Positions 3,553-29,100 of a stretch of DNA of 32,000 nucleotides are shown in pieces (position 1 is the first letter of the stretch; the number at the start of each line of letters is the position of its first letter). The position numbers and the translations under genes are program-made. Origin of the DNA: Candidatus Saccharimonadota bacterium (GTDB taxonomy: Bacteria > Bacteroidota > Bacteroidia > Cytophagales > Amoebophilaceae); contig NZ_OW441264.1 of the NCBI RefSeq assembly GCF_936981045.1, positions 240,001 through 272,000 of the forward strand, read 5' to 3'. The notes under the pieces were generated by a model. It had not been told where the DNA came from. It searched no databases and worked only from the letters and a program-made list of their open reading frames with translations.

Positions 3553-5475
3553 TTAAACCACAACACCCATCGTAGCCACCTCCGTACAAATTTGCTTCAT
3601 AAAGTCATTTAACGCCATAGTGATTTGCCCATCTTGTTTTCGAACCGAAACGGTTTCATCTGCCATTTCTTTTTCCCCAACCACTACAATATAGGGGACT
3701 TTGCGCAATGTGGCCTCACGGATTTTTTTCCCAATGGTCTCATTCCGGCTATCTAATGTAGCACGCATACCCTTTTCCAATAGCTTTTGCTGTACAACCG
3801 TACCATAACCATTATATTTATGAGAAAGAGCCAAAAGAGCTACTTGTTCTGGGGCTAGCCAAAGTGGAAACTTTCCACCGGTATGCTCAATAAGAATGGC
3901 TATAAACCGCTCCAGAGAACCAAATGGCGCACGATGGATCATAACGGGTCGATGCTTCCCACCATCAGCTCCCATATAGGTCAAATCAAACCGAATGGGC
4001 AATTGGTAATCCAATTGCACGGTACCCAATTGCCAACTCCGTCCTAAAACATCTTTCACCATAAAATCGACCTTTGGACCATAAAAAGCAGCTTCACCAA
4101 GCACAGTAGTAGCTTGTAAACCCTTCTCTTGGGCAATGGCTTGAATCGCTGCTTCGGCCAAATCCCAATCCTTCGACTCCCCTATATATTTATCGCTATT
4201 AGGGTCTCTAAAAGAGAGTTGCGCAGTATAGTCCTTAAAACCCAATAAACCAAATATATAAAGCACCAAATCAATTACTTTAGCAAACTCTTCTGGCACT
4301 TGATCTGAACGGCAGAAAATATGAGCATCATCTTGCGTAAAACAACGGGTTCTGGTCAATCCATGCAAGGCACCATGTAACTCGCAACGATAGACGGTTC
4401 CAAATTCTGCCAAACGTATGGGTAGCTCTTTATAAGACCAGGGTATACTATTGTAAATCTCACAATGATGGGGGCAATTCATAGGCTTTAAGAGATACTC
4501 TTCTTCAGCTTCAGCAGTACGAATGGGTTGAAAACAATCTTCTTGATACTTTTCATAATGACCAGAGGTGATATACAGTGCCTTATGGCCAATATGAGGG
4601 GTAACTACCGGCCGATACCCACGTTTGATTTGCTCCTTTTTAAGAAACTGCACCAAGGTATCACACAATAGCGCACCATTAGGCAACCAAAGAGGCAGAC
4701 CTAGGCCTACTTTTTCTGAAAAGGTAAACAAGCCAAGGGCTTTTCCGATCTTTATATGACTTCTTTTTTGGGCTTCTTCTCTAATATGGAGAAAATTAGA
4801 AAGTTCTTTTTTAGTTGGAAAGGTAATGCCATAGATACGGGTAAGCTGTTTATTTTTTTCATTGCCACGCCAGTAGGCTCCTGAAACATTTAAAATTTTA
4901 GCAGCCTTAACCCATGCAGTATGCGGAAGATGAACACCTTTACACAAATCTATAAAATCGCCTTGTTGGTATAAGGTAATCGTACCATCCTTTAACCCTT
5001 CTAGTAGTTCTAACTTATAAGGATCTTCTTTTTTACTAAAAAAGTCAACTGCTTCTTGTTTGGAAACTACTCGACGGATAAATGGATCTTTTCGCTGGGC
5101 CAGCGTAATGATTTTTTTTTCTATAGCTTCTAGGTCTAAAGCATCAGCCGCATAGACACCTAAGTCTACATCATAATAGAATCCCTGTGCAATAGGAGGA
5201 CCTATACCAAATTTAACACCAGGATAAAGGAGCTCCAAAGCTGCCGCCAAAAGGTGCGCAGAAGAGTGCCAAAAGAGCTGCTTGCCTGCATCATCGTCCC
5301 ATCTAAGAAAACGAAGGGGGGCATCTATTTCAATAGCACGGGTCAAGTCATAGACTTCCTCATTGACCTGAACCGCTAAAATGTCCATTTGCATCCCCAA
5401 CTGTTGGGCAATATGTAAACCAGTAATCCCTTTGGGAAATGACCTTATCTGGCCATCAATTAGAATGTGAATCAT
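3553..5475 (-). CDS. thrS: Threonine--tRNA ligase
   Basis: 640 aa track ORF. It has a TGS-like N-terminus, the editing-domain motif FWHSSAHLLAAAL, class II core motifs (MNCPHHCEIY, RLAEFGTVYRCE, TQDDAHIFC, FYGPKVDF, RPVMIHRAPFGSLERF) and a C-terminal anticodon-binding domain. Confidence 0.96.
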   Translation of the reverse strand: MIHILIDGQIRSFPKGITGLHIAQQLGMQMDILAVQVNEEVYDLTRAIEIDAPLRFLRWDDDAGKQLFWHSSAHLLAAALELLYPGVKFGIGPPIAQGFYYDVDLGVYAADALDLEAIEKKIITLAQRKDPFIRRVVSKQEAVDFFSKKEDPYKLELLEGLKDGTITLYQQGDFIDLCKGVHLPHTAWVKAAKILNVSGAYWRGNEKNKQLTRIYGITFPTKKELSNFLHIREEAQKRSHIKIGKALGLFTFSEKVGLGLPLWLPNGALLCDTLVQFLKKEQIKRGYRPVVTPHIGHKALYITSGHYEKYQEDCFQPIRTAEAEEEYLLKPMNCPHHCEIYNSIPWSYKELPIRLAEFGTVYRCELHGALHGLTRTRCFTQDDAHIFCRSDQVPEEFAKVIDLVLYIFGLLGFKDYTAQLSFRDPNSDKYIGESKDWDLAEAAIQAIAQEKGLQATTVLGEAAFYGPKVDFMVKDVLGRSWQLGTVQLDYQLPIRFDLTYMGADGGKHRPVMIHRAPFGSLERFIAILIEHTGGKFPLWLAPEQVALLALSHKYNGYGTVVQQKLLEKGMRATLDSRNETIGKKIREATLRKVPYIVVVGEKEMADETVSVRKQDGQITMALNDFMKQICTEVATMGVVV

Positions 5476-6742: not shown

Positions 6743-8002
6743 CTATTCTGTAAAATTTTCTAACACTATATAACTTAGCATAAGGGATATGCCAGATAAC
6801 AATAGTATAAGGTTGCAATTCAGAATCATTAACTTCCCTATAAATAGCCCAGCAATAAAGAAACCCATGGAAGCTATTTGCCCGCTACTACCGATTATCT
6901 TGCCTTGACTTTCTTTGCTTACGCTACCAGCAAATAAGTTGGTAAATCCTAATGTAGAAAATGGAGTAAATATATAAAATAATATTGCTATTATCCATGT
7001 AATATACAGGTGATCTGTTACAGATAAACATGATATGATTTGTCTGGAAATTGAACCAAATATTAATAATAGGGCAGTGACGAGTAGTGATAACTTGATT
7101 TGAGTTTTATAAGTAATGTACTTAACCATTAGTTTTTGTAATGAATACATGCTCATTGCCATAGTTATGAACATGACTATAAAGAATATACCAATCTTAT
7201 TAGGTGTATAACTATGGTTATATGCTAGATACAGTGATAGTGATTCTACAAATAGCCCAAAACCAAGCATAAATAATAAATAGCTAAAAGCCAACTTGAT
7301 TAAGTATGGGGTACCAAATATATATGTTAATGAAGTTGCTATCGACCTTAGAGCATGTAATAGATTAAAGCAAGATTTATTGGGTGTCATCTCCATATGG
7401 TACTTTATGTTAATTTTCCTAAAGCTATTCCATAGTAGCAGGAGGTTAGCTATGCTAAGTATACAAACGATAACAAATGGAATAATTAATGGATTGGCCA
7501 TATTTATTTGACTGATGCATATAGATAATCCGGGACCTAATATAAAACCCAACATAGATGCAAGCATGGGTAACTTAAAATTATTCATTCTGTCCTGTTC
7601 ATTATCAGATATATAACTAATTAAGGCATTACCTACTGCATAAGTACCAGATAAAAATCCACTTAAGCATATGCTCAGTAGAAATAACCATATATTATGG
7701 GTTGCTATTGCAGCTATACTTAATAGGCTATTCATTACTAATCCTATCAATCCATATAGGATAATTTTACTTTTCTCATACCTATCTGATAGCGCTCCTA
7801 ATATTGGCATGCCAACCATACTTGATAAAGGAAATAAAGCAAGCGTTAGGCTATACAATGTCTCATATGCGCAGCATATATTGTCAATTTTTAGTCCAAG
7901 CTTACGATTCATAAATAACTCTGGAAGTATAGGAAACAGTAAACCACTGTTTATTCCATCGATAAGTAACATCAAACAAATGCTGTATAAGAGAGGTTTC
8001 AT
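6743..8002 (-). CDS. Major facilitator superfamily transporter (DHA1/TetA-like, ~12 TM), the likely exporter of the NRPS product
   Basis: 419 aa track ORF, hydrophobic throughout. The MFS motif A region is GMPILGALSDRYEKSKIIL (compare GxLSDRxGRK). It lies last in the minus-strand MbtH-PPTase-MFS gene string. Confidence 0.8.
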   Translation of the reverse strand: MKPLLYSICLMLLIDGINSGLLFPILPELFMNRKLGLKIDNICCAYETLYSLTLALFPLSSMVGMPILGALSDRYEKSKIILYGLIGLVMNSLLSIAAIATHNIWLFLLSICLSGFLSGTYAVGNALISYISDNEQDRMNNFKLPMLASMLGFILGPGLSICISQINMANPLIIPFVIVCILSIANLLLLWNSFRKINIKYHMEMTPNKSCFNLLHALRSIATSLTYIFGTPYLIKLAFSYLLFMLGFGLFVESLSLYLAYNHSYTPNKIGIFFIVMFITMAMSMYSLQKLMVKYITYKTQIKLSLLVTALLLIFGSISRQIISCLSVTDHLYITWIIAILFYIFTPFSTLGFTNLFAGSVSKESQGKIIGSSGQIASMGFFIAGLFIGKLMILNCNLILLLSGISLMLSYIVLENFTE

Positions 8003-8114: not shown

Positions 8115-8891
8115 TTACAAGATTTTAATTTTATTGAAAATATAGTGGTTATGCATTTCTACATAAGCGATTTGATTTATTTTATGTTCTATAGCTAAAG
8201 CAGCTGAATAATCACCCTTTACCCTTAATGGAAAACAATACCAACTTTTCGGATACCGATTTTGTTTACTAGCAAGCGCAATAGTATTTGCCCCCATGGT
8301 CTCAATGGTGTTAATCGGATAGGATAACCCCTGCCCATTTGCTTTAATCAATGATTCTTTTTTAGTCCATATATCGTAAAAAAAACTAACTTTTGCATCA
8401 CCATTCAGGCAAGTAAAAAAGCGATATTCTGTGGGAGTAAATACCAGATGAGCCAGCTCTTGCACTTCTAGATTCTTATCATGTAGTTCAATATCAATAC
8501 CCACTCTACTATCTAAAGCAATCGCATAACCAACTAGGTCATGCGAATGGGACATATTAAAGGTAATATTAGACTCCTTCAAGAAAGGTTTACCATAGGC
8601 TCCGTAGGAAAATATAATATCTTTTGGATGCTGCTTAGTGTAATAGCCTAATATATACCTTAAAATTCCATGTGAGATAATGTACTGCCTCCTTAAATGG
8701 TCCGTATAATATTTGCTGGCTTGAACTTGTTCTTCAGCTGCTAAACATTGAAGGAATGGGTTTATATTTAATTTGCACTCAGCTAGATTGACAATATAAA
8801 TAAACACTTTATTAGGGTTTTGATTGAATACCAACTGGTCTAAAAGTTTTTGTTCAAAAATACCAGCACATTCCATTAAACCCTTTAGCAT
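8115..8891 (-). CDS. Sfp-type 4'-phosphopantetheinyl transferase
   Basis: 258 aa track ORF with the canonical motifs: RRQYIISHGILRYILG, YGKPFL, FNMSHSHDLVGYAI, VGIDIE and WTKKESLIKANGQGL (W/TxKE(A/S)xxK). Confidence 0.88.
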   Translation of the reverse strand: MLKGLMECAGIFEQKLLDQLVFNQNPNKVFIYIVNLAECKLNINPFLQCLAAEEQVQASKYYTDHLRRQYIISHGILRYILGYYTKQHPKDIIFSYGAYGKPFLKESNITFNMSHSHDLVGYAIALDSRVGIDIELHDKNLEVQELAHLVFTPTEYRFFTCLNGDAKVSFFYDIWTKKESLIKANGQGLSYPINTIETMGANTIALASKQNRYPKSWYCFPLRVKGDYSAALAIEHKINQIAYVEMHNHYIFNKIKIL

Positions 8892-9798: not shown

Positions 9799-11100
9799 AT
9801 GGGACGATTATTATTATCACCTTTTCATAAAATATTTTTTTATGAATGGAAATTAGATCCATATAGAAGTGATTACAATATAGTATGGGATCAGGAGTTA
9901 ACAGGTAAATTAAATATATCTAGATTAAATGATGCTATTCAACGCTTTATTGCTGATCATGTAATATTAAATAGCCATATCGAAGAGATAGATGGAGAAC
10001 TATATTGGATAAAGAACCCTAAAATATATGCATTAACCCATTTTAAAAATGGATTAACCAAACAAGATGTATTAGCATATATACAAAAGCCTTGTGAGTT
10101 AACAAATGGCCCATTGTATAGATTTGGATTGGCAAAAACACAAAGCAATCAGTACAGGTTCATTATTGTTTTGCACCATATAGTTGTAGATGGATTATCA
10201 TTTGATCATTTTGTAAATGAGTTATCCAATTACTATAATAGCAAGTATTATACATCCGCTGTTTCTACTCAAGAGCAAGTATTAAAGATTTCAGCTTTAT
10301 CTGATACATTGGTAAAAAATTACCAACGCAACCATGCAACTAGCAAGTTATTTTGGAGAGAAAAATTGTTGGACAGCGAACCTATAGATTTAAGTTTTCT
10401 ACGCTTTAGATGCAACCATCCTATACAAGATGTATCTGGATGGTCAATCTCCGAGCTTACTGGTATAGGAGAGCTAAGGTTCAGCTTTGATCAAACAGTA
10501 TTATTGAAACTAGATAGGTTGAAAGAACAATGTAACATAACCCCTTATCTATTTAGTCAGAGTATATTTGCCCTTTTACTGTACAAATACACTGGCCAAA
10601 ATAATTTTGGCATAAGTTATCTAGTGCCCATTGAACAGGGAAGAGATTTCTTATATGGGGTCGGTTTTAATACCAATATCATTCTTTATAACTTTAGTCA
10701 AGTAAATAATATTTTAGATCTAATTGATCAATCTAAAGCATTTATCCAATCATTAAAATATGGGGTTGTTGACCATAGCTATCTACCTATATTTGATATT
10801 ATATCAGTATCCGACAAATCTCTATTAGATGTCCAGTTTGTTCAGACGAACTTAAAAGATAAGCCTTTTGCATTTAAAGGTATAACAGCACAGGTTCATA
10901 GTAATACTAATATTGATCTATCTACAAAATTATTATTTGAACAAGAATTTAGGGATAATCAAATTTGTTATCGAGTAAGGTATAGATTAGATAACATTAA
11001 CAGAGATTTATTAGATGACTTTATAGACAGCTATAAGCGGCTGTTTTTAGCCATCTTGGATGAATTGGTTGCTGTAAAGGATATAGCCAATTTAAAACCT
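9799..11100 (+). other. NRPS N-terminal condensation domain. It is a starter C domain by position, suggesting possible lipo-initiation.
   Basis: MGRLLLSPFHKIFFYEW... (the LSPxQ-like C1 region), with HHIVVDGLS at 10174-10200. It is followed directly by the first A domain, and no A/T precedes it. Sequence divergence from the four internal C domains is obvious. Confidence 0.7.
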
Positions 11101-14100
11101 ATTATATCTTACTTGCTACTTTCTAAGGAACAATATGATCAAATTGTTTACAATTGGAATGCTACAGATAAAGTATATCCAGCTCATAAGACTATCCATC
11201 AGTTATTTGAAGAGCAAGTAGCAAGAACCCCAGATCATATAGCAGTAGTATATGAAGATGTAAGGCTTACTTATAAAGAGCTAAATGCAAGAGCCAATCA
11301 GTTAGCCAACTATTTAATAGAACATTATCAGCTTCAACCTGATGCGTTAATAGCCTTATGTTTGGATCGCAGTGCGCATATGTTGATAGTGATTTTAGCT
11401 GTATTAAAAGCTGGAGGAGCCTATGTACCCATTGACCCAAGCTATCCTGATGAAAGGATTCAGTATATATTAGAGGATACGGGTACTAAGTTAGTATTGA
11501 CTAATGAGGTATACCAGAAAAGGTTAGAAGCTATTAATCAGTATAATTTGACCAATACAGCTGGAATAGCCAATCAGGAAGATATAGCAGTAAGTCAACT
11601 ATGCGACATCTTAGCTATAGATGGTAAGCCTTTAGGGGAACAATTATTGTTACAATCAATAGCTAATCCAAATACAGAAACAATAAGTACGCATCTAGCC
11701 TATGTAATTTATACTTCAGGAACTACTGGTAAGCCTAAGGGGGTATTACAACTGCATGGTAATATTATGAGGTTATTTACAGCAACAGATAATTGGTATC
11801 AGTTTAGTGATAAAGAGGTTTGGACATTATTCCATGCCTATATATTTACCTTTAGTGTGTGGGAGATATGCGGAGCATTACTTTACGGAGGCAAGTTGGT
11901 TATACCCTCCTATGAGGAAACAAGAGAGCTCAACTTGTTTTACGAGTTATGCAATAAGGAGCAAGTAACCATATTAAATCAAACGCCTAGTGCTTTTTAT
12001 CAATTTACAGAGATAGCTATTCGTAAGGAAAAACTAACCCACTTAAGGTATGTTATATTTGGCGGTGAAGCTTTAAAGCCCTTCCAATTACAAGATTGGT
12101 TTGCTTGCTATGGCTATGATCAGCCTAAGTTAATCAATATGTATGGTAGTACAGAAACTGCTGCGCATGTCACTTATAAACCAATAACACAACAGGATCT
12201 AGTAGCGTACTCATATATAGGTAAGATCATACCTGATTTAAAATCATATGTATTAGATACCACCTTAACTCCCTTACCAATAGGCACCATAGGGGAATTA
12301 TATATAAGCGGAGCAGGTCTGGCCCGAGGTTACTTAAATAGAGCCGATCTTACCGCCGAGCGATTTATGGCCAATCCCTTCCAAACTGAAGACGAAAGAA
12401 GATCAGGAAAAAACGCAAGGTTATATAAAACAGGAGATTTAGTTAGATGGTTACCTGATGGTAATTTGGAATATATAGGAAGGAATGATTTTCAAGTTAA
12501 GATTAGAGGTTATCGTGTTGAACTAGGAGAGATTGAAGCTGCTTTATCTAGTTATCCAGCTATTAAACAAAGTGTGGTACTAGCTAGAGAGCATAAGGAC
12601 AAGGCAGAGGGTGGAGTTGGTCATAAATATCTAGTGGGTTATTATGTAGCAGAGACTAGATTAGATGAAGGAGCAATACTTAATTATCTGCAATCTAAAT
12701 TACCAGACTATATGGTACCTGCTCTATTAGTACACTTAGATCAGCTACCCCTTACCATTAATGGTAAATTGGATAGAAAAGCTTTACCAGAGCCTGAATT
12801 TACCAATCAAGATAGTTATGTAGCGCCAAGGAATGAGCTAGAAAGAAAGGTATGCCAGATATGGGCAGAGGTATTGGGATTAGCTGCAGATAAGGTAGGC
12901 ATAGAGGATGATTTCTTTAGATTAAGGGGGGATAGTATTGTAAGTATTCAACTGGTCAGTAGATTAAGGCAAAAACTGGGATTACATATTCGTGTTAAAG
13001 ATATTTTTACTTATAAAACCATTGAAAAACTTTATGATCATGTCTTAAGTAAAAAGGTAGACAGTGATGCAGAGCTAAAAACTGAGCAAGGTATGCTAAC
13101 GGGTGAACTACCCTTACTACCGGTACAACAATGGTTCTTTGCACATAACTTTACTGCTGCTCATCATTGGAATCAAGCATTTCTAATCAAAACACCTAAT
13201 TTAGATTTAAATCAACTAGAAAAAAGTATAGCGCAACTGTTCCAGCACCATGATGGCTTTAGGTTAAGGTATAAGAAAGTAGCAGAGCAGGAGCATTATG
13301 GGCAATATTATGATGCAAATGCAGTAGTAGAACCACTAAAGGTGTTAGATGTTAGGACATTGTCAGTTAAAGAAGGTAGTAAATCATTTGAGGCTAAGTT
13401 ACGGGAAGTATTAACCGATTGGCAAAGTGAATTTGATTTGGAAAATGGACCAGTCTATAGCATAGGCTATATCCATGGCTATCAGGATGGTAGTAGCCGC
13501 ATCCATTTTTCCCTACACCATTTAATAGTAGATGCGGTAAGTTGGCGTATATTAGCTGAAGACTTAAGAGCTATTTACTACAGTAAAGATCTAGGTAGTA
13601 AAGGCAGTAGTAACCGCCAATGGGTGCATGCAGTAGAGGCATATGCCGTTAGCCACTCATCTGAAAAAGACTACTGGATCCATGTTTTATCCGATTACAA
13701 CAGCAGTCCATTGGATGTCTTGATGGTCAGTGAAACTACCTGCCACTACAGCAGCCTACAGCTAAGCAAGCAACAAACGGTCCGGTTGTTACAGGAAAGT
13801 AACCAAACCTATCATACCCAAATCAATGATTTATTACTGACAGCGCTTGGTTATAGCTTAGCTGAAATTACTCGCCATAAGGTTAACCATATTGTGTTAG
13901 AAGGTCATGGTCGAGAAGCTATTGATGGTAGTATTGATGTAACTAGAACATTGGGTTGGTTTACTACCATCTATCCAGTTCGCTTAGAGATTGGTGCATC
14001 ATTAGCAGATAGTATCAAACATACCAAGGAAAATCTAAGAAAGATCCCTCATAAGGGCATAGGTTATGGCACTTTATTGGGTTATAAAAAGGATCTCCCC

Positions 14101-17100
14101 AGGATAAGTTTTAATTACCTAAGGCAATTTGATAAAAAAGATGGAATAGATCAATGGCCTATTGTTGGTGAAGCGACTGGTGTAACCATAGATAGTGCCA
14201 ATCAAGATCCTTATATCATTAATATCAATGGCTTAGTAATCAATGGTCAACTGCAGTTTGATATATCTAGTAAGCTAGATACAGCCACTACCCAAAAACT
14301 GGCTCATACATTTAAGCAAAAATTGGAAGAGGTCATTGATCATACCATAGAGCAAACCAGAAGTTATTTAACCGTAAGTGATATAGATTACATCATCAGT
14401 CAAGAATGCTTGGATAGCTTACAAAGCGATAAAGAGGTAGCAGGAGTATATTTGGCCAATAGCCTACAGCAAGGCTTTATCTACCATGCCTTAAGCCAAG
14501 GAGATATCGATGATGCCTATCGCGTACAAGTGATTTGGGAATATCATACTCCATTAGATGTTGATCATTTAAAAGAAGCTTGGCTATTGGCTCAAGCTAA
14601 GTTTGGTAGTTTACGATTAAGGTTAGACTGGCAAGAGGAGTTGATTCAAATAATAGATAAGATAGGCCATTTAAATTGGCACTATATCGATGTAAGTCAA
14701 ACACAAGATCTGGTTGCCCAATCTACTAAGATTAAGCAAATTCAAGAACAAGATCGACAGGAACCCTATAACCTAGCCTTAGGTAATCTGTTTAGAGTAT
14801 ATTTAATTAAACAAAAGAAAGATTTATATACCTGCATTTTTAGTAATCATCATGCCATACTAGATGGTTGGAGCAACCAAATACTATTTAAATATGTGCA
14901 TGATACCTACTTAAAAGTACAGGCGCAAGCAGTCATACCATTAAAGGTAGATGTTAGTTATCCAGCTGCCCAGCAATACATACAGGCGCATCAAACAACT
15001 AATAAGGATTACTGGGATGCATATATAGCACAAATAGAAGAACGAACTGACTTAAGTGGATTATTATCCAGTAGTGGACAACAGTTACGCATCAACGAGC
15101 ATAGACATATCCGTAATCCTCAGGATCAAATAGTAAGCATTACAGGTAACCTGTATGATGGATTAAAACAACTAAGCCAAGTAGCAGGTGTAACCTTAAA
15201 TGCATTATTACAATATGTATGGCATAAAGTATTAAGTATTTATGGCAACAGTCTTCAAACGGTAGTAGGTACTACTGTGTCAGGTAGAAATCTTCCTATA
15301 GATGATATAGAACACTCAGTAGGGTTATATATCAATACCCTTCCTTTGGTAGTAGTCCATCAGAGTGATATAAGTGTTATAGAGGCTATCAGGAAGATCC
15401 AAAGCGATATCAATGAGATCAATAGCAGAAGCGATATAAGCTTGGCTAAGCTACAGAAAGAGGGTCAAAGGTTATTTGATAGCTTATTTGTATATGAAAA
15501 TTATCCTGATTTAATTGGTAAGGAAGCGCATGAAGATATAAAAATAAGCTTTAAAGAATTGGTAGAGAAACTAGACTATCCATTAGCAGTAACAGCTTAT
15601 GAAGCCAATCATCAGTTAACTTTTGCGCTTAAATATGCAGGGGAATTATTTAGTAAAGATACTATAGCAGATTTATTATTGATCGTTCAAGGCTTACTTG
15701 AACAAATAGCTGGTGATCCTGATCAGCAGGTATCTAATCTGGATTATCTTACCCCAGCACAGTATAATCAAATTATAGCTACCTGGAATGCTACAGATAA
15801 AGCATATCCAGCTCATAAGACCATTCATCAATTGTTTGAAGAACAGGTAGAGAAGACTCCAGGTCATATAGCAGTAGTATATAAGGAGGTAAAGTTAACC
15901 TACAGGCAACTCGATGAAAGCGCTAACCGGTTAGCTAACTATTTAATAAAACATTATCAGATTCAACCTGACGTGTTAATAGCCTTATTTTTAGATCGCA
16001 GTGAGCATATGTTGATAGCGATTTTAGCTGTATTAAAAGCTGGAGGAGCCTATGTACCCATTGACCCAAGTTATCCTGATAAGAGAATTCAGTATATACT
16101 AGAAGATACTGATACTAAATTAGTATTGACTAATCAGGTCCATCAGCAAAGGTTAGAAGCTATTAGTCAATATAATTTGACCAATACAGCTGGAATAGCC
16201 AATCAGGAAGATGTAGCAGTAAGTCAACTATGCGACATCTTAGCTATAGATGGTAAGCCTTTAGGGGAACAATTATTGTTACAATCAATAGCTAATCCAA
16301 ATACAGAAACAATAAGTACTCATTTAGCCTATGTAATCTATACTTCAGGAACTACTGGTAAGCCTAAGGGGGTAATGGTAGAGCATAAAGGAATAGTAAA
16401 TTATATTTTGAATTTTCAGAATTATATAGAGTTATCTTATAGTGAGAAAGTTGACCTGTCTTCAAGTCTTAGTTTTGATTTTACTGTTACAACTACATTA
16501 TGTAGTTTGTGTTTAGGGTTCCAAGTTGCTGTTTATGGTGGTCAATTAGAAGATTTGGAATCATACAGAAATTATCTAGTCAATAATTCAATATCTATGG
16601 TGAAGCTATCACCAAGTTATGGTGAGTTATTAATTGATTTTTTAAATGGTACACGAATTAATAAAGTTATATTTGGCGGAGAGAAATTAGGTGTCACTAT
16701 TCTAAGCAAGCTACCATATCTTAATAACAAGGTAAAAATATATGATGAATATGGTCCAACTGAAACAACAGTTGGTGTTTATTGCATTGAGATACATTCT
16801 AATGGTAATGTAGCTAAAAGAAATATATATGATAATTGTAAGTTATATGTGTTAGATACCACTTTAGCTCCCCTACCTATAGGAGCTATAGGAGAATTGT
16901 ATATAGGCGGAGCAGGTCTAGCCCGAGGTTACTTAAACAGATCTGACCTTACCGCTGAGCGGTTTATAGCTAATCCATTCCAAACTGGAGAAGAGAAAAG
17001 ATTAGGAAAGAATGCAAGATTATATAAAACGGGAGATTTAGTACGTTGGTTACCAGATGGTAATTTGGAGTGTATAGGAAGGAATGATTTCCAAGTTAAA

Positions 17101-20100
17101 ATTAGAGGTTATCGTATTGAATTAGGAGAAGTTGAAACTGCTTTATCCAGTTATCCAGCTATTAAACAAAGTGTGGTACTAGCTAGAGAGCATAAGGACA
17201 AGGCAGAGGGTGGAGCTGGTCATAAATATCTAGTGGGTTATTATGTATCAGAGACTAGATTAGATGAAGGAGCAATACTTAATTATCTGCAATCTAAATT
17301 ACCAGACTATATGGTACCTGCTCTATTGGTACACCTAGATCAGCTACCTCTTACCATTAATGGTAAATTGGATAGAAAAGCTTTACCAGAGCCTGAATTT
17401 ACCAATCAAGGTGGTTATGTAGCGCCAAGGAATGGGCTAGAAAAAAAGGTATGCCAGATATGGGCAGAGGTATTAGGATTGGATGAAGATAAAGTAGGCA
17501 TAGAGGATGATTTCTTTAGATTAGGGGGAGATAGTATTGTAAGTATTCAGTTGGTCAGTAGATTAAGGCAAAAGCTAGGATTACATATTGGTGTTAAAGA
17601 TATTTTTACTTATAAAACCATTGAAAAACTTTATGATCATGTCTTGAGTAAAAAGGTAGATAGTGATGCACAGTTAAAAACTGAGCAAGGTATACTAACG
17701 GGTGAACTACCCTTACTACCGGTACAACAATGGTTCTTTGCACATAACTTTACCGCTGCTCATCATTGGAATCAAGCATTTCTAATCAAAACACTTAATT
17801 TAGATTTAAATCAACTAGAAAAAGGTATAGCGCAATTGGTCCAGCACCATGATGGCTTTAGGTTAAGGTATAAGAAAGTAGCAGAGCAGGAGCATTATGG
17901 GCAATATTATGATGCAAATGCAGCAGTAGAACCACTAAAGGTGTTAGATGTTAGGACGTTACCAGTTAAAGAAGGTAGTAAATCATTTGAGGCTAAGTTA
18001 CAGGAAGTATTAGCCGATTGGCAAAGTGGATTTGATTTGGAAAATGGACCAGTCTATAACATAGGCTATATCCATGGGTATCAAGATGGTAGTAGCCGCA
18101 TCCATTTTTCCCTACACCATTTAATAGTAGATGCGGTAAGTTGGCGTATATTGACTGAAGATCTAAAGGCTATTTACCATGGTCATAAGTTAGGCTTAAA
18201 AGGCAGTAGTTACCGCCAATGGGTGCATGCAGTAGAGGAATATGCAGCTAGTCATGCATCTGAAAAAGACTACTGGATCCATGTTTTATCCGATTATAAC
18301 AGCAGTCCGTTGAATGGTTTGATGGTCAGTGAAACTACCTGCCACTACAGTAGTTTACAACTAAGCAAGCAACAAACGGTTCGGTTGTTACAGAAAAGTA
18401 ACCAAGCCTACCATACCCAAATCAATGATCTATTGTTGACAGCCCTTGGTTATAGTTTAGCTGAAATCACTGGCCATAGGGTTAACCATATTGTGTTAGA
18501 AGGTCATGGTCGAGAAGCGATTGATGGTAGTATTGATGTAACTAGAACATTAGGTTGGTTCACTACCATCTATCCGGTTCGCTTAGAGATCAGTGCATCA
18601 TTAGCAGATAGTATCAAGCATATCAAGGGCAATCTAAGAAAGATCCCCCATAAGGGCATAGGTTACGGCACTTTATTGGGTTATAAAAAGGATCTACCCA
18701 AGATAAGTTTTAATTACCTAGGACAATTTGATAAGAAAGATGGAACATTAGATGGATGGCCTATTGTTAGTGAAGCGGCTGGTATAACCGTAGATGGTGC
18801 CAATCAAGATCCTTGTATTATTAATATCAATGGCCTAGTAATCAATGGTCAACTTCAGTTTGATATATCCAGTAAGCTAGATATAGCCACTACCCAAAAA
18901 CTGGCTGACGCGTTTAAGCAAAAACTGGAAGAGGTCATTGATCATACCGTAGGGCAAACCAGAAGTCATTTAACCACAAGTGATATAGATTACATTATCA
19001 GTCAAGAGCGGTTAGATCTATTACAGGAATCCAGAGAAATAGAAGGAGTATATTTGGCCAATAGCTTACAACAAGGCTTTATCTACCATGCTTTAAGCCA
19101 AGGAGACATCGATGATGCCTATCGCATACAAGTGATTTGGGAATATCATACTTCATTAGATGTTGATCACTTAAAAGAAGCTTGGACATTGGCTCAAGCT
19201 AAGTTTGGTAGTTTACGATTAAGACTAGACTGGCAAGGGGAGTTGATTCAAATAATAGATAGGGTAGGTTACTTAAATTGGCATTATATCGATATAAGTC
19301 AAATGCAAGATCTGGCTGCCCAATCTACTAAGATTAAGCAAATTCAAGAACAAGATCGACAGGAACCCTATAACCTAGCCTTAGGTAATCTGTTTAGAGT
19401 ATATTTAATTAAACAAAAGAAAGATTTATATACCTGCATTTTTAGTAATCACCATGCCATACTAGATGGTTGGAGCAACCAAATACTATTTAAATATGTG
19501 CATGATACCTACTTAAAAGTACAGGCGCAAGCAGTCATACCATTAAAGGTAGATGCTAGTTATCCAGCCGCACAGCAATATATACAGACTCATCAGGCAG
19601 CCAATAAGGATTACTGGGATGGATATATAGCACAAATAGAAGAACGAACTGACTTAAGTGGGTTATTATCCAGTAGTGGCCAACAGTTACGCATCAACGA
19701 ACATAGGCATATCCGTAATCCTCAGGATCAAATAGTAAGCATTATAGGTAATCTGTATGATGGATTAAAGCAATTAAGCCAGGTAGCAGGTGTAACTTTA
19801 AATGCGTTGCTACAATATGTATGGCATAAAGTATTAAGTATTTATGGAAACAGTCTTCAAACGGTAGTAGGTACTACTGTGTCAGGTAGAAATCTTCCTA
19901 TAGATGATATAGAACACTCGGTAGGGTTATATATCAATACCCTTCCTTTGGTAGTAACCCATCAAGGTGATATAAGCGTTATAGAGGCTATCAGGAAGAT
20001 CCAAAGCGATATCAATGAGATCAATAGCAGAAGCGATATAAGCTTGGCTAAGCTACAGAAAGAGGGTCAAAGGTTATTTGATAGCTTATTTGTATATGAA

Positions 20101-23100
20101 AATTATCCTGATTTAATTGGTAAGGAAGCGCATGAAGATATAAAAATAAGCTTTAAAGAATCGGTAGAGAAACTGGACTATCCATTAGCGGTAATAGCTT
20201 ATGAAGCCAATCATCAGTTAACTTTTGTGCTTAAATATGCAGGAGAATTATTTAGCAAAGATACTATAGCAGATTTATTATTGATCGTTCAAGGCTTACT
20301 TGAACAAATAGCTAGTGATCCTGATCAGCAGGTATCTAATCTGGATTATCTTACCCCAGCACAGTATAATCAAATTATAGCTACCTGGAATGATACAGAT
20401 AAAGCATATCCAGCTCATAAGACCATTCATCAATTGTTTGAAGAACAGGTAGAGAAGACTCCAGGTCATATAGCAGTAGTATATGAAGAGGTAAAGCTTA
20501 CTTATAAAGAGCTAAATGAGAAATCTAACCAGTTAGCCAACTATTTAATAAAACATTATCAGATTCAACCTGATGCGTTAATAGCCTTGTGTTTGGACCG
20601 TAGTGAGCATATGTTGATAGCGATTCTAGCTGTGTTAAAAGCTGGAGGAGCCTATGTACCCATTGACCCAAGCTATCCTGATGAGCGAGTTCAGTATATA
20701 CTAGAAGATACTGATACTAAATTAGTATTGACTAATCAGGTCCATCAGCAAAGGTTAGAAGCTATTAGTCAATATAATTTGACCAATACAGCTGGAATAG
20801 CCAATCAGGAAGATGTAGCAGTAAGTCAACTATGCGACATCTTAGCTATAGATGGTAAGCCTTTAGGGGAACAATTATTGTTACAATCAATAGCTAATCC
20901 AAATACAGAAACAATAAGTACTCATTTAGCCTATGTAATCTATACTTCAGGAACTACTGGTAAGCCTAAGGGGGTATTACAACTGCATGGTAATATTATG
21001 AGGTTATTTACAGCAACAGATAATTGGTATCAGTTTAGTGATAAAGAGGTTTGGACATTATTCCATGCCTATATATTTGACTTTAGTGTGTGGGAGATAT
21101 GGGGAGCATTGCTTTACGGAGGCAAGTTGGTTATACCCTCCTATGAGGAAACAAGAGAGCTCAACTTGTTTTACGAGTTATGCAATAAGGAGCAAGTAAC
21201 CATATTAAACCAAACGCCTGGTGCTTTTTATCAATTTATAGAGATAGCTATTCATAAGGAAAAACTAACCCACTTAAGGTATGTTATATTTGGTGGTGAA
21301 GTCTTAAAGCCCTTCCAATTACAAGATTGGTTTGCTTGCTATGGCTATGATCAGCCTAAGTTAATCAATATGTATGGTATTACAGAAACTGCTGTGCATG
21401 TCACCCATAAACCAATAACACAACAGGATTTGGTAGCGTACTCATATATAGGTAAGATCATACCTGATTTAAAATCATATGTATTAGATACCACCTTAAC
21501 TCCCCTACCTATAGGAGCTATAGGAGAATTGTATATAGGCGGAGCAGGTCTAGCCCGAGGTTACTTAAACAGATCTGACCTTACCGCTGAGCGGTTTATA
21601 GCTAATCCATTCCAAACTGGAGAAGAGAAAAGATTAGGAAAGAATGCAAGATTATATAAAACGGGAGATTTAGTACGTTGGTTACCAGATGGTAATTTGG
21701 AGTGTATAGGAAGGAATGATTTCCAAGTTAAAATTAGAGGTTATCGTATTGAATTAGGAGAAGTTGAAACTGCTTTATCCAGTTATCCAGCTATTAAACA
21801 AAGTGTGGTACTAGCTAGAGAGCATAAGGACAAGGCAGAGGGTGGAGCTGGTCATAAATATCTAGTGGGTTATTATGTATCAGAGACTAGATTAGATGAA
21901 GGAGCAATACTTAATTATCTGCAATCTAAATTACCAGACTATATGGTACCTGCTCTATTGGTACACCTAGATCAGCTACCTCTTACCATTAATGGTAAAT
22001 TGGATAGAAAAGCTTTACCAGAGCCTGAATTTACCAATCAAGGTGGTTATGTAGCGCCAAGGAATGGGCTAGAAAAAAAGGTATGCCAGATATGGGCAGA
22101 GGTATTAGGATTGGATGAAGATAAAGTAGGCATAGAGGATGATTTCTTTAGATTAGGGGGAGATAGTATTGTAAGTATTCAGTTGGTCAGTAGATTAAGG
22201 CAAAAGCTAGGATTACATATTGGTGTTAAAGATATTTTTACTTATAAAACCATTGAAAAACTTTATGATCATGTCTTGAGTAAAAAGGTAGATAGTGATG
22301 CACAGTTAAAAACTGAGCAAGGTATACTAACGGGTGAACTACCCTTACTACCGGTACAACAATGGTTCTTTGCACATAACTTTACCGCTGCTCATCATTG
22401 GAATCAAGCATTTCTAATCAAAACACTTAATTTAGATTTAAATCAACTAGAAAAAGGTATAGCGCAATTGGTCCAGCACCATGATGGCTTTAGGTTAAGG
22501 TATAAGAAAGTAGCAGAGCAGGAGCATTATGGGCAATATTATGATGCAAATGCAGCAGTAGAACCACTAAAGGTGTTAGATGTTAGGACGTTACCAGTTA
22601 AAGAAGGTAGTAAATCATTTGAGGCTAAGTTACAGGAAGTATTAGCCGATTGGCAAAGTGGATTTGATTTGGAAAATGGACCAGTCTATAACATAGGCTA
22701 TATCCATGGGTATCAAGATGGTAGTAGCCGCATCCATTTTTCCCTACACCATTTAATAGTAGATGCGGTAAGTTGGCGTATATTGACTGAAGATCTAAAG
22801 GCTATTTACCATGGTCATAAGTTAGGCTTAAAAGGCAGTAGTTACCGCCAATGGGTGCATGCAGTAGAGGAATATGCAGCTAGTCATGCATCTGAAAAAG
22901 ACTACTGGATCCATGTTTTATCCGATTATAACAGCAGTCCGTTGAATGGTTTGATGGTCAGTGAAACTACCTGCCACTACAGTAGTCTACAACTAAGCAA
23001 GCAACAAACGGTTCGGTTGTTACAGAAAAGTAACCAAGCCTACCATACCCAAATCAATGATCTATTGTTGACAGCCCTTGGTTATAGTTTAGCTGAAATC

Positions 23101-26100
23101 ACTGGCCATAGGGTTAACCATATTGTGTTAGAAGGTCATGGTCGAGAAGCGATTGATGGTAGTATTGATGTAACTAGAACATTAGGTTGGTTCACTACCA
23201 TCTATCCGGTTCGCTTAGAGATCAGTGCATCATTAGCAGATAGTATCAAGCATATCAAGGGCAATCTAAGAAAGATCCCCCATAAGGGCATAGGTTACGG
23301 CACTTTATTGGGTTATAAAAAGGATCTACCCAAGATAAGTTTTAATTACCTAGGACAATTTGATAAGAAAGATGGAACATTAGATGGATGGCCTATTGTT
23401 AGTGAAGCGGCTGGTATAACCGTAGATGGTGCCAATCAAGATCCTTGTATTATTAATATCAATGGCCTAGTAATCAATGGTCAACTTCAGTTTGATATAT
23501 CCAGTAAGCTAGATATAGCCACTACCCAAAAACTGGCTGACGCGTTTAAGCAAAAACTGGAAGAGGTCATTGATCATACCGTAGGGCAAACCAGAAGTCA
23601 TTTAACCACAAGTGATATAGATTACATTATCAGTCAAGAGCGGTTAGATCTATTACAGGAATCCAGAGAAATAGAAGGAGTATATTTGGCCAATAGCTTA
23701 CAACAAGGCTTTATCTACCATGCTTTAAGCCAAGGAGACATCGATGATGCCTATCGCATACAAGTGATTTGGGAATATCATACTTCATTAGATGTTGATC
23801 ACTTAAAAGAAGCTTGGACATTGGCTCAAGCTAAGTTTGGTAGTTTACGATTAAGACTAGACTGGCAAGGGGAGTTGATTCAAATAATAGATAGGGTAGG
23901 TTACTTAAATTGGCATTATATCGATATAAGTCAAATGCAAGATCTGGCTGCCCAATCTACTAAGATTAAGCAAATTCAAGAACAAGATCGACAGGAACCC
24001 TATAACCTAGCCTTAGGTAATCTGTTTAGAGTATATTTAATTAAACAAAAGAAAGATTTATATACCTGCATTTTTAGTAATCACCATGCCATACTAGATG
24101 GTTGGAGCAACCAAATACTATTGAAATATGTGCATGATACTTACTTAAAACTACAAGCGCAAGCAGTTATACCATTAAAAGTAGATGCTAGTTATCCAGC
24201 CGCACAGCAATATATACAGACTCATCAGGCAGCCAATAAGGATTACTGGGATGGATATATAGCACAAATAGAAGAACGAACTGACTTAAGTGGATTATTA
24301 TCTAGTAGTAGCAAACAGTTACATATCAATGAGCATAGACACATTCGTAATCCCCAGGATCAAGTAGTAAGCATTATAGGTAATCTGTATGATGGATTAA
24401 AGCAATTAAGCCAGGTAGCAGGTGTAACTTTAAATGCGTTGCTACAATATGTATGGCATAAAGTATTAAGTATTTATGGAAACAGTCTTCAAACGGTAGT
24501 AGGTACTACTGTGTCAGGTAGAAATCTTCCTATAGATGATATAGAACACTCGGTAGGGTTATATATCAATACCCTTCCTTTGGTAGTAACCCATCAAGGT
24601 GATATAAGCGTTATAGAGGCTATCAGGAAGATCCAAAGCGATATCAATGAGATCAATAGCAGAAGCGATATAAGCTTGGCTAAGCTACAGAAAGAGGGTC
24701 AAAGGTTATTTGATAGCTTATTTGTATATGAAAATTATCCTGATTTAATTGGTAAGGAAGCGCATGAAGATATAAAAATAAGCTTTAAAGAATCGGTAGA
24801 GAAACTGGACTATCCATTAGCGGTAATAGCTTATGAAGCCAATCATCAGTTAACTTTTGCGCTTAAATATGCAGGAGAATTATTTAGCAAAGATGCTATA
24901 GCAGATTTATTATTGATCGTTCAAAGCTTACTTGAACAAATAGCTGGTGATCCTGATCAGCAGGTATCTAATCTGGATTATCTTACCCCAGCACAGTATA
25001 ATCAAATTATAGCTACCTGGAATGCTACAGATAAAGCATATCCAGCTCATAAGACCATTCATCAATTGTTTGAAGAACAGGTAGAGAAGACTCCAGGTCG
25101 TATAGCAGTAGTATATGAAGAGGTAAAGCTTACTTATAAAGAGCTAAATGAGAAATCTAACCAGTTAGCCAACTATTTAATAAAACATTATCAGATTCAA
25201 CCTGATGCGTTAATAGCCTTGTGTTTGGACCGTAGTGAGCATATGTTGATAGCGATTCTAGCTGTGTTAAAAGCTGGAGGAGCCTATGTACCCATTGACC
25301 CAAGCTATCCTGATGAGCGAGTTCAGTATATACTAGAAGATACTGATACTAAATTAGTATTGACTAATCAGGTCCATCAGCAAAGGTTAGAAGCTATTAG
25401 TCAATATAATTTGACCAATACAGTTGGAATAGCCAATCAGGAAGGTGTGGCAATAAGTCAACTATGCGACATCTTAGCTATAGATGGTAAGCCTTTAGGG
25501 GAACAATTATTATTACAATCAATAGCTAATCCAAATACAGAAACAATAAGTACTCATTTAGCCTATGTAATCTATACTTCAGGAACTACTGGTAGACCTA
25601 AAGGAGTCATGATAGAACATAAAGGGGTCGTGAATTTAAGATATGATTTAACAGGTAGGTATCAGCTTGGTCATACAGATAATAATGAAGCTATTTTACA
25701 ATTTGCTGATTATGTGTTTGACGCTTCAGTAGAGCAAATGGTATTGCCTCTATTAGGTGGTCACCTGTTGGTACTTATTCCAAACCAGTTATGGTTAGAT
25801 AAACAACAGTTTTATAATTATCTAATTACCCATAAAGTTACTCATATGCATGCTACGCCTGCCTTTTTAGAGCAATGTAATTTTAGCCAAATTGCAAGTT
25901 TGAAGAGATTGGTATGTGGAGGCGACTTACTCAGTCAAGATCGCTACAACAAAATAAAGCTAGCGGTAGGTGATGATCTCACCATAATAAATGAATATGG
26001 ACCTACGGAAGCATCTATAACTTCTACAGTTAGTGTTATCCAACATAATACTCTAATCACGATAGGAGTGCCTATTTCCAATATGAGGTGCTATATATTA

Positions 26101-29100
26101 GATGATAGCCTAACCCCCTTACCCATAGGGGCGATAGGAGAATTATACATAGGCGGAGCAGGTCTATCCCGAGGTTACTTAAACAGATCTGACCTTACCG
26201 CTGAGCGGTTTATAGCTAACCCATTCCAAACTGGAGAAGAGAAAAGATTAGGAAAGAATGCAAGATTATATAAAACGGGAGATTTAGTACGTTGGTTACC
26301 AGATGGTAATTTGGAGTGTATAGGAAGGAATGATTTCCAAGTTAAAATTAGAGGTTATCGTATTGAATTAGGAGAAGTTGAAACTGCTTTATCCAGTTAT
26401 CCAGCTATTAAACAAAGTGTGGTACTAGCTAGAGAGCATAAGGACAAGGCAGAGGGTGGAGCTGGTCATAAATATCTAGTGGGTTATTATGTATCAGAGA
26501 CTAGATTAGATGAAGGAGCAATACTTAATTATCTGCAATCTAAATTACCAGACTATATGGTACCTGCTCTATTGGTACACCTAGATCAGCTACCTCTTAC
26601 CATTAATGGTAAATTGGATAGAAAAGCTTTACCAGAGCCTGAATTTACCAATCAAGGTGGTTATGTAGCGCCAAGGAATGAGCTAGAAAAAAAGGTATGC
26701 CAGATATGGGCAGAGGTATTAGGATTGGATGAAGATAAAGTAGGCATAGAGGATGATTTCTTTAGATTAGGGGGAGATAGTATTGTAAGTATTCAGTTGG
26801 TCAGTAGATTAAGGCAAAAGCTAGGATTACATATTGGTGTTAAAGATATTTTTACTTATAAAACCATTGAAAAACTTTATGATCATGTCTTGAGTAAAAA
26901 GGTAGATAGTGATGCACAGTTAAAAACTGAGCAAGGTATACTAACGGGTGAACTACCCTTACTACCGGTACAACAATGGTTCTTTGCACATAACTTTACC
27001 GCTGCTCATCATTGGAATCAAGCATTTCTAATCAAAACACTTAATTTAGATTTAAATCAACTAGAAAAAGGTATAGCGCAATTGGTCCAGCACCATGATG
27101 GCTTTAGGTTAAGGTATAAGAAAGTAGCAGAGCAGGAGCATTATGGGCAATATTATGATGCAAATGCAGCAGTAGAACCACTAAAGGTGTTAGATGTTAG
27201 GACGTTACCAGTTAAAGAAGGTAGTAAATCATTTGAGGCTAAGTTACAGGAAGTATTAGCCGATTGGCAAAGTGGATTTGATTTGGAAAATGGACCAGTC
27301 TATAACATAGGCTATATCCATGGGTATCAAGATGGTAGTAGCCGCATCCATTTTTCCCTACACCATTTAATAGTAGATGCGGTAAGTTGGCGTATATTGA
27401 CTGAAGATCTAAAGGCTATTTACCATGGTCATAAGTTAGGCTTAAAAGGCAGTAGTTACCGCCAATGGGTGCATGCAGTAGAGGAATATGCAGCTAGTCA
27501 TGCATCTGAAAAAGACTACTGGATCCATGTTTTATCCGATTATAACAGCAGTCCGTTGAATGGTTTGATGGTCAGTGAAACTACCTGCCACTACAGTAGT
27601 CTACAACTAAGCAAGCAACAAACGGTTCGGTTGTTACAGAAAAGTAACCAAGCCTACCATACCCAAATCAATGATCTATTGTTGACAGCCCTTGGTTATA
27701 GTTTAGCTGAAATCACTGGCCATAGGGTTAACCATATTGTGTTAGAAGGTCATGGTCGAGAAGCGATTGATGGTAGTATTGATGTAACTAGAACATTAGG
27801 TTGGTTCACTACCATCTATCCGGTTCGCTTAGAGATCAGTGCATCATTAGCAGATAGTATCAAGCATATCAAGGGCAATCTAAGAAAGATCCCCCATAAG
27901 GGCATAGGTTACGGCACTTTATTGGGTTATAAAAAGGATCTACCCAAGATAAGTTTTAATTACCTAGGACAATTTGATAAGAAAGATGGAACATTAGATG
28001 GATGGCCTATTGTTAGTGAAGCGGCTGGTATAACCGTAGATGGTGCCAATCAAGATCCTTGTATTATTAATATCAATGGCCTAGTAATCAATGGTCAACT
28101 TCAGTTTGATATATCCAGTAAGCTAGATATAGCCACTACCCAAAAACTGGCTGACGCGTTTAAGCAAAAACTGGAAGAGGTCATTGATCATACCGTAGGG
28201 CAAACCAGAAGTCATTTAACCACAAGTGATATAGATTACATTATCAGTCAAGAGCGGTTAGATCTATTACAGGAATCCAGAGAAATAGAAGGAGTATATT
28301 TGGCCAATAGCTTACAACAAGGCTTTATCTACCATGCTTTAAGCCAAGGAGACATCGATGATGCCTATCGCATACAAGTGATTTGGGAATATCATACTTC
28401 ATTAGATGTTGATCACTTAAAAGAAGCTTGGACATTGGCTCAAGCTAAGTTTGGTAGTTTACGATTAAGACTAGACTGGCAAGGGGAGTTGATTCAAATA
28501 ATAGATAGGGTAGGTTACTTAAATTGGCATTATATCGATATAAGTCAAATGCAAGATCTGGCTGCCCAATCTACTAAGATTAAGCAAATTCAAGAACAAG
28601 ATCGACAGGAACCCTATAACCTAGCCTTAGGTAATCTGTTTAGAGTATATTTAATTAAACAAAAGAAAGATTTATATACCTGCATTTTTAGTAATCACCA
28701 TGCCATACTAGATGGTTGGAGCAACCAAATACTATTGAAATATGTGCATGATACTTACTTAAAACTACAAGCGCAAGCAGTTATACCATTAAAAGTAGAT
28801 GCTAGTTATCCAGCCGCACAGCAATATATACAGACTCATCAGGCAGCCAATAAGGATTACTGGGATGGATATATAGCACAAATAGAAGAACGAACTGACT
28901 TAAGTGGATTATTATCTAGTAGTAGCAAACAGTTACATATCAATGAGCATAGACACATTCGTAATCCCCAGGATCAAGTAGTAAGCATTATAGGTAATCT
29001 GTATGATGGATTAAAGCAATTAAGCCAGGTAGCAGGTGTAACTTTAAATGCGTTGCTACAATATGTATGGCATAAAGTATTAAGTATTTATGGAAACAGT

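Follow-up and report, generated by a model that had tools for sequence, protein, structure and literature searches.

How can the modules of a single nonribosomal peptide synthetase (NRPS) be identical to the base over kilobases and yet carry unrelated substrate-selecting cores? The question is raised by a 32,000-nucleotide (nt) window, the whole stretch of DNA analysed here (contig NZ_OW441264.1, positions 240,001 to 272,000). The Cardinium endosymbiont of the dwarf spider Oedothorax gibbosus has a single large NRPS, and the window contains its first five C-A-T-E (condensation, adenylation, thiolation and epimerization) modules. The threonyl-tRNA synthetase (ThrRS) encoded in the window is, by protein search, 100% identical to that of this endosymbiont, and ThrRS relatives at 89-94% exist in the closest Cardinium strains. 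An earlier note on this DNA had proposed that specificity was exchanged here as a cassette by recombination. The half of this proposal in which recombination uncouples the block between the adenylation motifs A3 and A6 from the rest of each module is supported, but the cassette as the moving piece is not established, and the timing of the events favours the flanks. The tandem 4.6-kb modules have probably evolved in concert by intragenic recombination, around three old core lineages lodged between A3 and A6.

The reading frame lies on the plus strand, is open from 9793, has its first ATG at 9799 and has not closed by 31998, giving at least 7400 codons. A motif scan found A3 (YTSGTTGKPKG), A7, A8, A10 and the T-domain core five times with a period of ~4.6 kb, and E-type (HHLIVDA) and C-type (HHAILDG) motifs alternate along the frame. 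A repeat finder independently returned five direct copies with the same period, the spacing of the repeats upstream and downstream of the cassette being offset by the differences in cassette length. Pfam matches in the protein comprise Condensation, AMP-binding, AMP-binding_C and PP-binding, with PF00501 and PF13193 present in modules 1 and 2, the two modules covered by that scan. Motifs A3, A7, A8 and A10 in all five modules place the A domains among the NRPS adenylation (ANL) domains, and the A domain of module 3 matched the solved structures 1AMU (E = 1e-96) and LgrA (E = 1e-193). The strict A5 pattern NxYGPTE occurs in modules 4 and 5 only, modules 1-3 carrying variant forms. At the window edge, the domain after the fifth T domain (31400-31998) is a diverged E-type domain with the motif HHLMVDS, so that an E domain is found in all five modules.

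Identity among modules 2, 3 and 4 changes in steps. In 60-nt windows it is 93-100% as far as the codon that follows the A3 motif, falls to 22-60% across the cassette and then returns to 97-100%. Before the cassette, 16141-16374 in module 2 is identical to 20743-20976 in module 3, within a perfect run of 287 nt that ends at a GTA codon. The first bases past this codon diverge (ATGGTAGAGCATAAAGG versus TTACAACTGCATGGTAA), and identity resumes at CCCCTACCTATAGGAGCT, which is found only at 16870 and 21502. Beyond the cassette, modules 2 and 3 have a single mismatch in the first 2623 nt, and modules 3 and 4 have three in 3404 nt. The earlier note had described the identity up to GTA, the divergent strings, the two points of resumption and the lengths of the segments (495, 525 and 555 nt, or 165, 175 and 185 codons), all of them exactly, and its statements that the transitions are step-like and the rest of the module homogenised are borne out. 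The block reaches from just past A3 to GrsA positions ~365-377, and all nine variable Stachelhaus positions (235-331) therefore lie inside the cassette, as had been expected; the pocket numbering was validated with a reference fragment that matches 1AMU residues 234-452 exactly. Lys517 lies outside the cassette, in the homogenised flank, and the A10 motif PLTINGKLD that holds it is found in five of five modules.

The segments of modules 3 and 4 are not unique, as had been claimed for them. Cassette 3 is 96.8% identical to cassette 1 at the nucleotide level (11746-12270), and cassette 4 is 93.3% identical to cassette 5 (segment 30223-30729; the cores are 91% identical), while the flanks of both pairs are far more diverged than their cassettes. 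Cassettes of different type share 25-31% amino acid (aa) and ~45% nt identity. In the Thr and Asn blocks the last residues are ...LT, directly before PLPIGAI-GELYIGG and thus 7 residues before GEL. The supposition that module 4 behaves in the same way holds for the sharpness of its block; its 3' edge lies 33-37 nt (11-12 codons) downstream of that of modules 2 and 3, after GELYIG instead of before PLPIG.

Modules 3 and 4 are chimeras, and their breakpoints can be mapped closely (Table 1). With modules 1 and 2 as references, module 3 is module-2-like to 20940, module-1-like at 290 of the 295 informative sites in 20977-21499, and module-2-like again from 21505. With modules 3 and 5 as references, module 4 is module-3-like to 25572, module-5-like at 284 of 297 informative sites in 25602-26148, and module-3-like from 26154. 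The partitions of informative sites exclude chance (Fisher p = 4e-62 for module 3 and 5e-97 for module 4). In neighbour-joining trees with database outgroups, the five modules form a single clade of their own in both flank partitions, to the exclusion of every outgroup. The cassette tree has a different shape, with cassettes 1 and 3 joined by foreign Thr domains, cassettes 4 and 5 by other foreign domains, and cassette 2 alone; the Thr-type domains that group with cassettes 1 and 3 show 57-60% identity, and P0010 and P0011, which group with cassettes 4 and 5, show 43-52%. With incongruent trees and step-like transitions, neither of the two outcomes that the earlier note had set against its own proposal, namely gradual transitions and congruent trees, was found.

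The order of events can be read from the synonymous divergence (dS). Between modules 1 and 3 it amounts to 0.30 in the N-flank, 0.069 in the cassette and 0.59 in the C-flank, and between modules 4 and 5 to 0.69, 0.17 and 0.70. For modules 2 and 3 the corresponding values are 0.17, 1.9 and 0, and for modules 3 and 4 they are 0.05, 2.2 and 0.11. Between cassette types dS is saturated (1.6-2.8). The downstream flanks have dS 0 among modules 2-4 versus 0.2-0.7 to modules 1 and 5, and from A8 through the T domain dS is 0 in every pair among modules 2, 3 and 4. In the identical tracts (553 and 712 synonymous sites), 37-109 differences would be expected at the rates of the cassette pairs, and 1 and 3 in total were seen (Poisson P < 1e-14). 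Since the flanks are so much closer to each other than the members of either cassette pair, the latest events are flank homogenisations that end at the edges of the block. The copying of cores between modules 1 and 3 and between modules 4 and 5 is older than the flank homogenisation of modules 2-4. Flanks that form a single clade, a dS of 0 among modules 2-4 and patchy tracts of differing age together constitute the pattern of concerted evolution.

The flanks have a history of their own. Modules 1 and 5 share a second flank haplotype in the tract from A6 to T1, which differs from that of modules 2-4 (dS ~0.6 in the first 300 nt) and ends ~30 nt before the T core motif. This haplotype carries Thr and acidic-pocket cores, and that of modules 2-4 carries all three types. 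Its occurrence in both module 1 (Thr) and module 5 (acidic) indicates that associations between flanks and cores were reshuffled more than once. The identity between the units following cassettes 3 and 4 stops abruptly in the C-A linker (24944/29558), where LLEQI is followed by AGDPDQQV in one and VGYPHQQV in the other. Module 5 has its own A1-A3 flank, with a dS of 0.45-0.76 to the others, and the onset of its T domain, just upstream of its E domain, shows ~76% nt identity to the other modules; modules 2-4 are mutually 100% identical there. Further short conversion tracts are suggested by a small module-1-like patch (20485-20595) in the N-flank of module 3, which is otherwise module-2-like. 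The diverged flank pairs are under purifying selection (dN/dS 0.10-0.27), and the 22-kb frame is intact.

The pocket codes of the cores (Table 1) allow substrates to be predicted. The code of module 3, DFWNIGMVH, is what we take to be the canonical Thr code, and that of module 2, DFTKIGEVG, presumably specifies Asn, as it agrees with seven of the nine positions of what we take to be the Asn code. Asp235 is present in A2-A5 and replaced by Thr in A1, and the A10 lysine is retained in all five modules. In A1 the codon at 11848-11850 is ACC (Thr235) versus GAC in module 3, accompanied by V330A, and the T-domain core of module 1 (12913-12936) reads FFRLRGDS versus FFRLGGDS in modules 2-5. Module 1 may be in decay, or a building block that is not a standard alpha-amino acid may be loaded behind the starter C domain. 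The pockets of A4 and A5 are one code position apart, with His278 versus Asp278 (25849-25851 and 30463-30465), and their wealth of acidic residues (E239, D/H278, E322) suggests that the 'X' of the published prediction may be a cationic substrate. Overall the predicted codes read T*-N-T-X-X, in agreement with the seven-residue antiSMASH prediction TNTXXLP published for the NRPS of this strain (Halter et al., PMC9997750). The product would be an N-acylated peptide, with D-configuration predicted for residues 1-5 at least from the E domain in each of modules 1-5.

A simple mechanism would generate these patterns. Intragenic homologous recombination, by gene conversion or unequal exchange, would keep almost all of each module near-identical, from ~7 codons before A6 through Asub, T, E and the next C domain to A1-A3. 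The A3-A6 block of 165-185 codons would persist in three old lineages, of Thr, Asn-like and acidic-pocket type. Because cores of different type offer no usable DNA homology (45% nt), and recombination requires it, conversion tracts starting in a flank would be unable to run into a foreign core and would pile up at both edges, which may be why the edges are so sharp. Tracts anchored in both flanks would carry a whole core from module to module. Selection on the peptide product would filter the surviving outcomes. The A3-A6 core would set the amino acid adenylated, which fits the T-N-T-X-X prediction, and the invariant flanks would preserve the C-A, Asub-T and T-E-C interfaces.

Other histories could leave a mosaic of this kind. 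One of them reverses the order of events, with a single module triplicated by unequal crossing-over and Thr and acidic cores pasted in afterwards by double crossover. A single event per module would then account for both edges, the cores of modules 3 and 4 do have relatives in modules 1 and 5, and the identical flanks of modules 2-4 fit a recent duplication. We nevertheless regard it as unlikely. The cores of modules 3 and 4 differ from their only visible donors by a dS of 0.069 and 0.17, against the 1-3 differences in flanks where 37-109 are expected, so that copies not seen here would have to be the donors. The two modules beyond the window are predicted to select Leu and Pro (PMC9997750), not Thr or X. 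A recent horizontal transfer of the cores from NRPS genes of other organisms into a resident scaffold would explain why the GC3 values of the cores (0.18 in cassette 2, 0.28, and 0.33-0.35 in the Thr cassettes) differ mutually and from those of the flanks (0.23-0.27). It is also in line with the low GC of the whole island relative to the housekeeping genes, with the finding of the best full-length homologue in a Rickettsiales amoeba symbiont, and with the best relative of cassette 2 (P0357, 64%) having flanks that are only 50-51% identical. Such a transfer is very improbable all the same: the searches run yielded no close donor, the flanks are similarly remote from everything known (58-60% and 77%), and intragenic copying accounts for the pairs 1/3 and 4/5.

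Two further explanations dispense with recombination or with the pattern itself. The assembly could have collapsed or over-polished the repeats, creating a false perfect identity around true differences; the genome is rich in repeats, the PacBio reads were host-derived and assembled with Unicycler, and perfect runs of 1.5-1.9 kb are unusual. Collapse loses copies, however, and would not yield five ordered modules, three core types and one open frame, and the module count fits the published seven-residue prediction (PMC9997750). Patches with 6-25 differences per 100 nt survive inside otherwise identical units, as they would not have done had the consensus erased variation wholesale. The contrast between 45% and at least 95% identity outlasts any polishing error, which could at most have inflated 99% to 100%, and an artefact as the source of the mosaic has only a slight chance of being true. 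The A3-A6 block could, finally, have diverged in place under diversifying selection or local hypermutation, given that it is exactly where selection for a new specificity would act. This explanation is refuted by the synonymous sites, which are saturated in the block (dS 1.6-2.8) and unchanged (dS 0) only bases outside it. It is also refuted by the relationships of the blocks, each of which resembles foreign A domains of its own type (52-72% aa) more than it does its neighbours (25-31% aa). The lengths of the blocks also differ (165, 175 and 169 codons), and we give this explanation virtually no credence.

Concerted evolution around old cores thus remains the probable explanation, although several points weigh against it. 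The two 3' edges, 33-37 nt apart, mean that there is no single fixed splice site. The kilobase-long perfect identity comes from a PacBio/Unicycler assembly and could be slightly inflated by consensus over repeats. Module 1, with its missing Asp235 and its odd T-domain core, could be decaying, and the GC3 differences among the cores may hint at separate origins. In the older events either the core may have moved or both flanks may have been overwritten; in the sequence of one genome, a flank-conversion tract ending at a cassette edge and a tract spanning the cassette leave the same pattern. No orthologous NRPS was found in searches of species-representative genomes (GTDB-based), proteins or metagenomes. 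No rec genes lie within the 32-kb window of this reduced genome.

The search for donor lineages that the earlier note had called for identified none, the best matches to the cores reaching 54-72% aa identity. A word-indexed search of 5.8 billion proteins, with 8000 candidates scored per query and listed matches all shorter than ~900 aa, gave best matches of 54%, 68-72% and 63% aa for a concatenated query of cassettes 2, 3 and 4. Cassette 2 was also used alone in a HMMER scan of 1.84 billion cluster representatives, the only library in which full-length NRPSs were seen; it reached at most 59% among the HMMER matches listed (P0422, partial), and P0357 reached 64% in a BLAST of the long matches. 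No external donor of any core was found in these protein searches, and the donor side of a natural subdomain swap is seen here only as the intragenic partners 1/3 and 4/5. The whole A2 domain gave a best match of 53% in the protein search, and its scan against the species-representative genomes returned relatives of at most 48% in Chryseobacterium, Legionella, Chitinophagaceae and Psychromonas metagenome-assembled genomes (MAGs), whose non-orthologous architectures rule them out as orthologues. A search of metagenomes with the A domain of module 3 found no relative. The contig with the best relative of the Thr core (L077) was likewise rejected as an orthologue, being a frameshifted, AT-rich NRPS fragment.

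The combination found here is rare among related loci. Both flanks at 90% identity or more together with a core at 65% or less occurred in none of the 287 intra-locus pairs of A domains in 77 such loci. Weaker versions (flanks 84-94%, core ~51%) are present in Chitinophagaceae and Psychromonas MAGs and on metagenomic contig L077, making the present pattern extreme and not qualitatively unique. In P0358 and P0361, two long multi-module NRPSs of the representative library, the flanks are about as diverged as the cores (30-50% aa) in most module pairs. The closest full-length homologue found, P0356 (WP_164503864.1; 4480 aa), stems from the Rickettsiales endosymbiont of Stachyamoeba lipophora. Identity amounts to 55% across the whole 1369-residue inter-cassette unit, and the C-A-T-E period is the same. 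P0356 carries one Thr-like core together with two Asn-like cores that are identical to each other, and its own C-flanks are 95-96% identical beside cores that are 32% identical. It is an independent case of the same flank and core pattern. P0356 belongs to a different phylum, however, and its first N-flank is not homogenised (43%); not being an orthologue, it is of no use for polarising the events seen here.

The pattern itself has been described before, and more widely than the earlier note implied in stating that such exchange had been proposed for a few NRPSs. Li, Ioca, He and Donia (2024, PNAS Nexus, PMC11428043) reported a 'unit-and-linker' organisation in 20 NRPS pathways of Candidatus Endobryopsis kahalalidifaciens, in which the specificity unit begins where A3 ends and reaches to an extended A6, ~7 residues before the canonical A6, and in which the conserved CA-A3 and A6-T1 linkers serve for recombination. 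The same unit is found here, and in both systems the block groups by substrate and does not covary with its flanks. Both have additional boundaries at the C-A linker and T1, located here at 24944/29558 and 12884/31343, and both hosts are intracellular Bacteroidota symbionts with transposase-rich, reduced genomes. Unlike the 20 paralogous pathways of Endobryopsis, the present case concerns one gene exchanging between its own tandem modules, with 0-3 differences per 2.6-3.4 kb in flanks that are 'moderately variable' in Endobryopsis. It also comes from another organism (Cardinium, Amoebophilaceae), with an NRPS only ~50% related to anything in the databases searched, and its acidic-pocket block ends 11-12 codons beyond the pre-A6 boundary of Li et al. 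Exchange of the Acore was found to be the predominant mode of NRP diversification across phyla, with microcystin, anabaenopeptin and lipopeptides among the examples (Baunach et al. 2021, MBE, PMC8097286). There, as here, the exchanged unit lies inside the Acore, the C-A linker, Asub and Asub-T interface remain native, and breakpoints were recognised in sliding windows. Those cases involve orthologous clusters of different strains and plural boundaries, in contrast to the modules of a single gene.

Intragenomic recombination of A domains was described by Booth et al. (2022, Nat Commun, PMC9205934), who acknowledge homogenising gene conversion. The recombinant region, from about A2 to A5/A6, similarly leaves the C-A interface intact, but the donor A domain lies elsewhere in the genome and the boundaries begin at A2 and not at the end of A3. 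Engineered swaps of the flavodoxin-like subdomain (Crüsemann 2013, hormaomycin; Kries 2015, GrsA; Thong 2021, enduracidin, PMC8616955) resemble the present mosaic in exchanging a piece smaller than the A domain with 9/10 code residues and keeping the rest of the domain. That unit is 139 residues long in EndA (PMC8616955), whereas the blocks here, at 165-185 residues, are longer than ~139 and include the stretch right after the A3 P-loop; the natural block would probably contain the engineering unit. According to Thong et al. (PMC8616955), swaps work mostly above 55% identity. In the sequence seen here, cores of 25-31% identity stand in identical scaffolds. With the A3-to-extended-A6 unit and Acore exchange already published (PMC11428043, PMC8097286), the lesson for engineering is not new, and the locus, though unusually clean, adds a further example to a kind of recombination already described and is not a new phenomenon. 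The internal mosaic of this NRPS is not mentioned by Halter et al. (PMC9997750), and no further discussion of the NRPS was found in the literature searched beyond that paper.

Upstream of the NRPS, on the opposite strand, lie genes for a phosphopantetheinyl transferase (PPTase) and an MFS transporter, followed by thrS, lpxD, an insertion sequence (IS) element and lpxC. An Rfam scan of the 10 kb upstream gave no match. The IS element (1397-2398, ~1 kb) is located between lpxC and lpxD and is bounded by 18-nt terminal inverted repeats (1397-1414 and 2381-2398), and its DDE transposase (PF13612) is broken into two open reading frames (ORFs; 1503-1751 and 1791-2384). The lpxC ORF extends past the LpxC domain and exits the window at its start. 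The NRPS island (5500-32000) is AT-richer than the adjacent housekeeping genes (2479-5475), with a GC content of 36.5% in the NRPS, 32% in the MFS gene and 34% in the PPTase gene compared with 42% in thrS and 44% in lpxD. The low GC of the island and the presence of the closest full-length homologue in a Rickettsiales amoeba symbiont suggest that the whole cluster may have been acquired horizontally among intracellular symbionts.

Table 1. Features of the NRPS locus in window coordinates; core types are predictions from the pocket codes.
Feature	Position	Strand	Description
MFS transporter	6743..8002	-	PF07690; likely exporter for the cluster
Sfp-type PPTase	8115..8891	-	PF01648 + PF22624; putative helper gene of the cluster
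NRPS ORF	9799..31998	+	Uninterrupted, exits window at 3' end; five modules: starter C, then A-T-E-C repeated
Cassette 1	11746..12270	+	175 codons; Thr-type core, derived pocket TFWNIGMAH (D235T, V330A)
Second flank haplotype, A6-to-T1 tract of module 1	12346..12884	+	Equals module 5 30805-31343 bar one base (12622/31081)
Cassette 2	16375..16869	+	495 nt, 165 codons; Asn-like core DFTKIGEVG; lowest GC3 (0.18)
Inter-cassette unit U2, homogenised	16870..20976	+	A6-A10, T, E, C, C-A linker, A1-A3; 36 mismatches in 4109 nt vs U3
Module 3 chimera, 5' breakpoint interval	20941..20976	+	36 nt; run coding YTSGTTGKPKGV (motif A3), identical in modules 1-3
Cassette 3	20977..21501	+	525 nt, 175 codons; Thr core DFWNIGMVH; module-1-like inside module-2-like flanks
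Module 3 chimera, 3' breakpoint interval	21500..21504	+	5 nt; 7 codons upstream of GELYIGG (motif A6)
Inter-cassette unit U3, homogenised	21502..25593	+	Mismatches counted per bin
Module 4 chimera, 5' breakpoint interval	25573..25601	+	29 nt; inside motif A3 coding run
Cassette 4	25594..26153	+	~185 codons; acidic pocket DAEHVGEIT; module-5-like inside module-3-like flanks
Module 4 chimera, 3' breakpoint interval	26149..26153	+	5 nt; just past GELYIG
Part of U4 near-identical to U3	26154..29557	+	3 mismatches in 3404 nt; ends in C-A linker at 29558
Cassette 5	30208..30767	+	Cassette-4 type, DAEDVGEIT (His278 -> Asp)

The locus amounts to a natural experiment of a kind that NRPS engineers have sought to construct, in which three unrelated cores (25-31% aa identity) stand in base-for-base identical scaffolds and the junctions are resolved to 5-36 nt. 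Provided that the enzyme is active, this would support the longer splice unit from A3 to just before A6, which may tolerate identities far below the ~55% limit of flavodoxin-subdomain swaps. A caution follows from the order of events, as very clean edges can come from recent homogenisation of flanks beside non-homologous cores and need not reflect a recent swap. It is a bolder and rather doubtful idea that the gene is a standing shuffling system, in which identical flanks let any core move anywhere by one conversion event. Were this so, Cardinium lineages or spider populations would differ in the order of their cores and make different peptides rich in D-amino acids, cores less than 31% identical would be fully interchangeable in one scaffold, and the diversifying evolution of Endobryopsis would have a counterpart within one gene.

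For the Bacteroidota, the findings extend the unit-and-linker picture to a second intracellular symbiont and to exchange within a gene. The intact frame, the purifying selection and the active homogenisation, all in a decaying genome, suggest that the peptide matters to the symbiosis.

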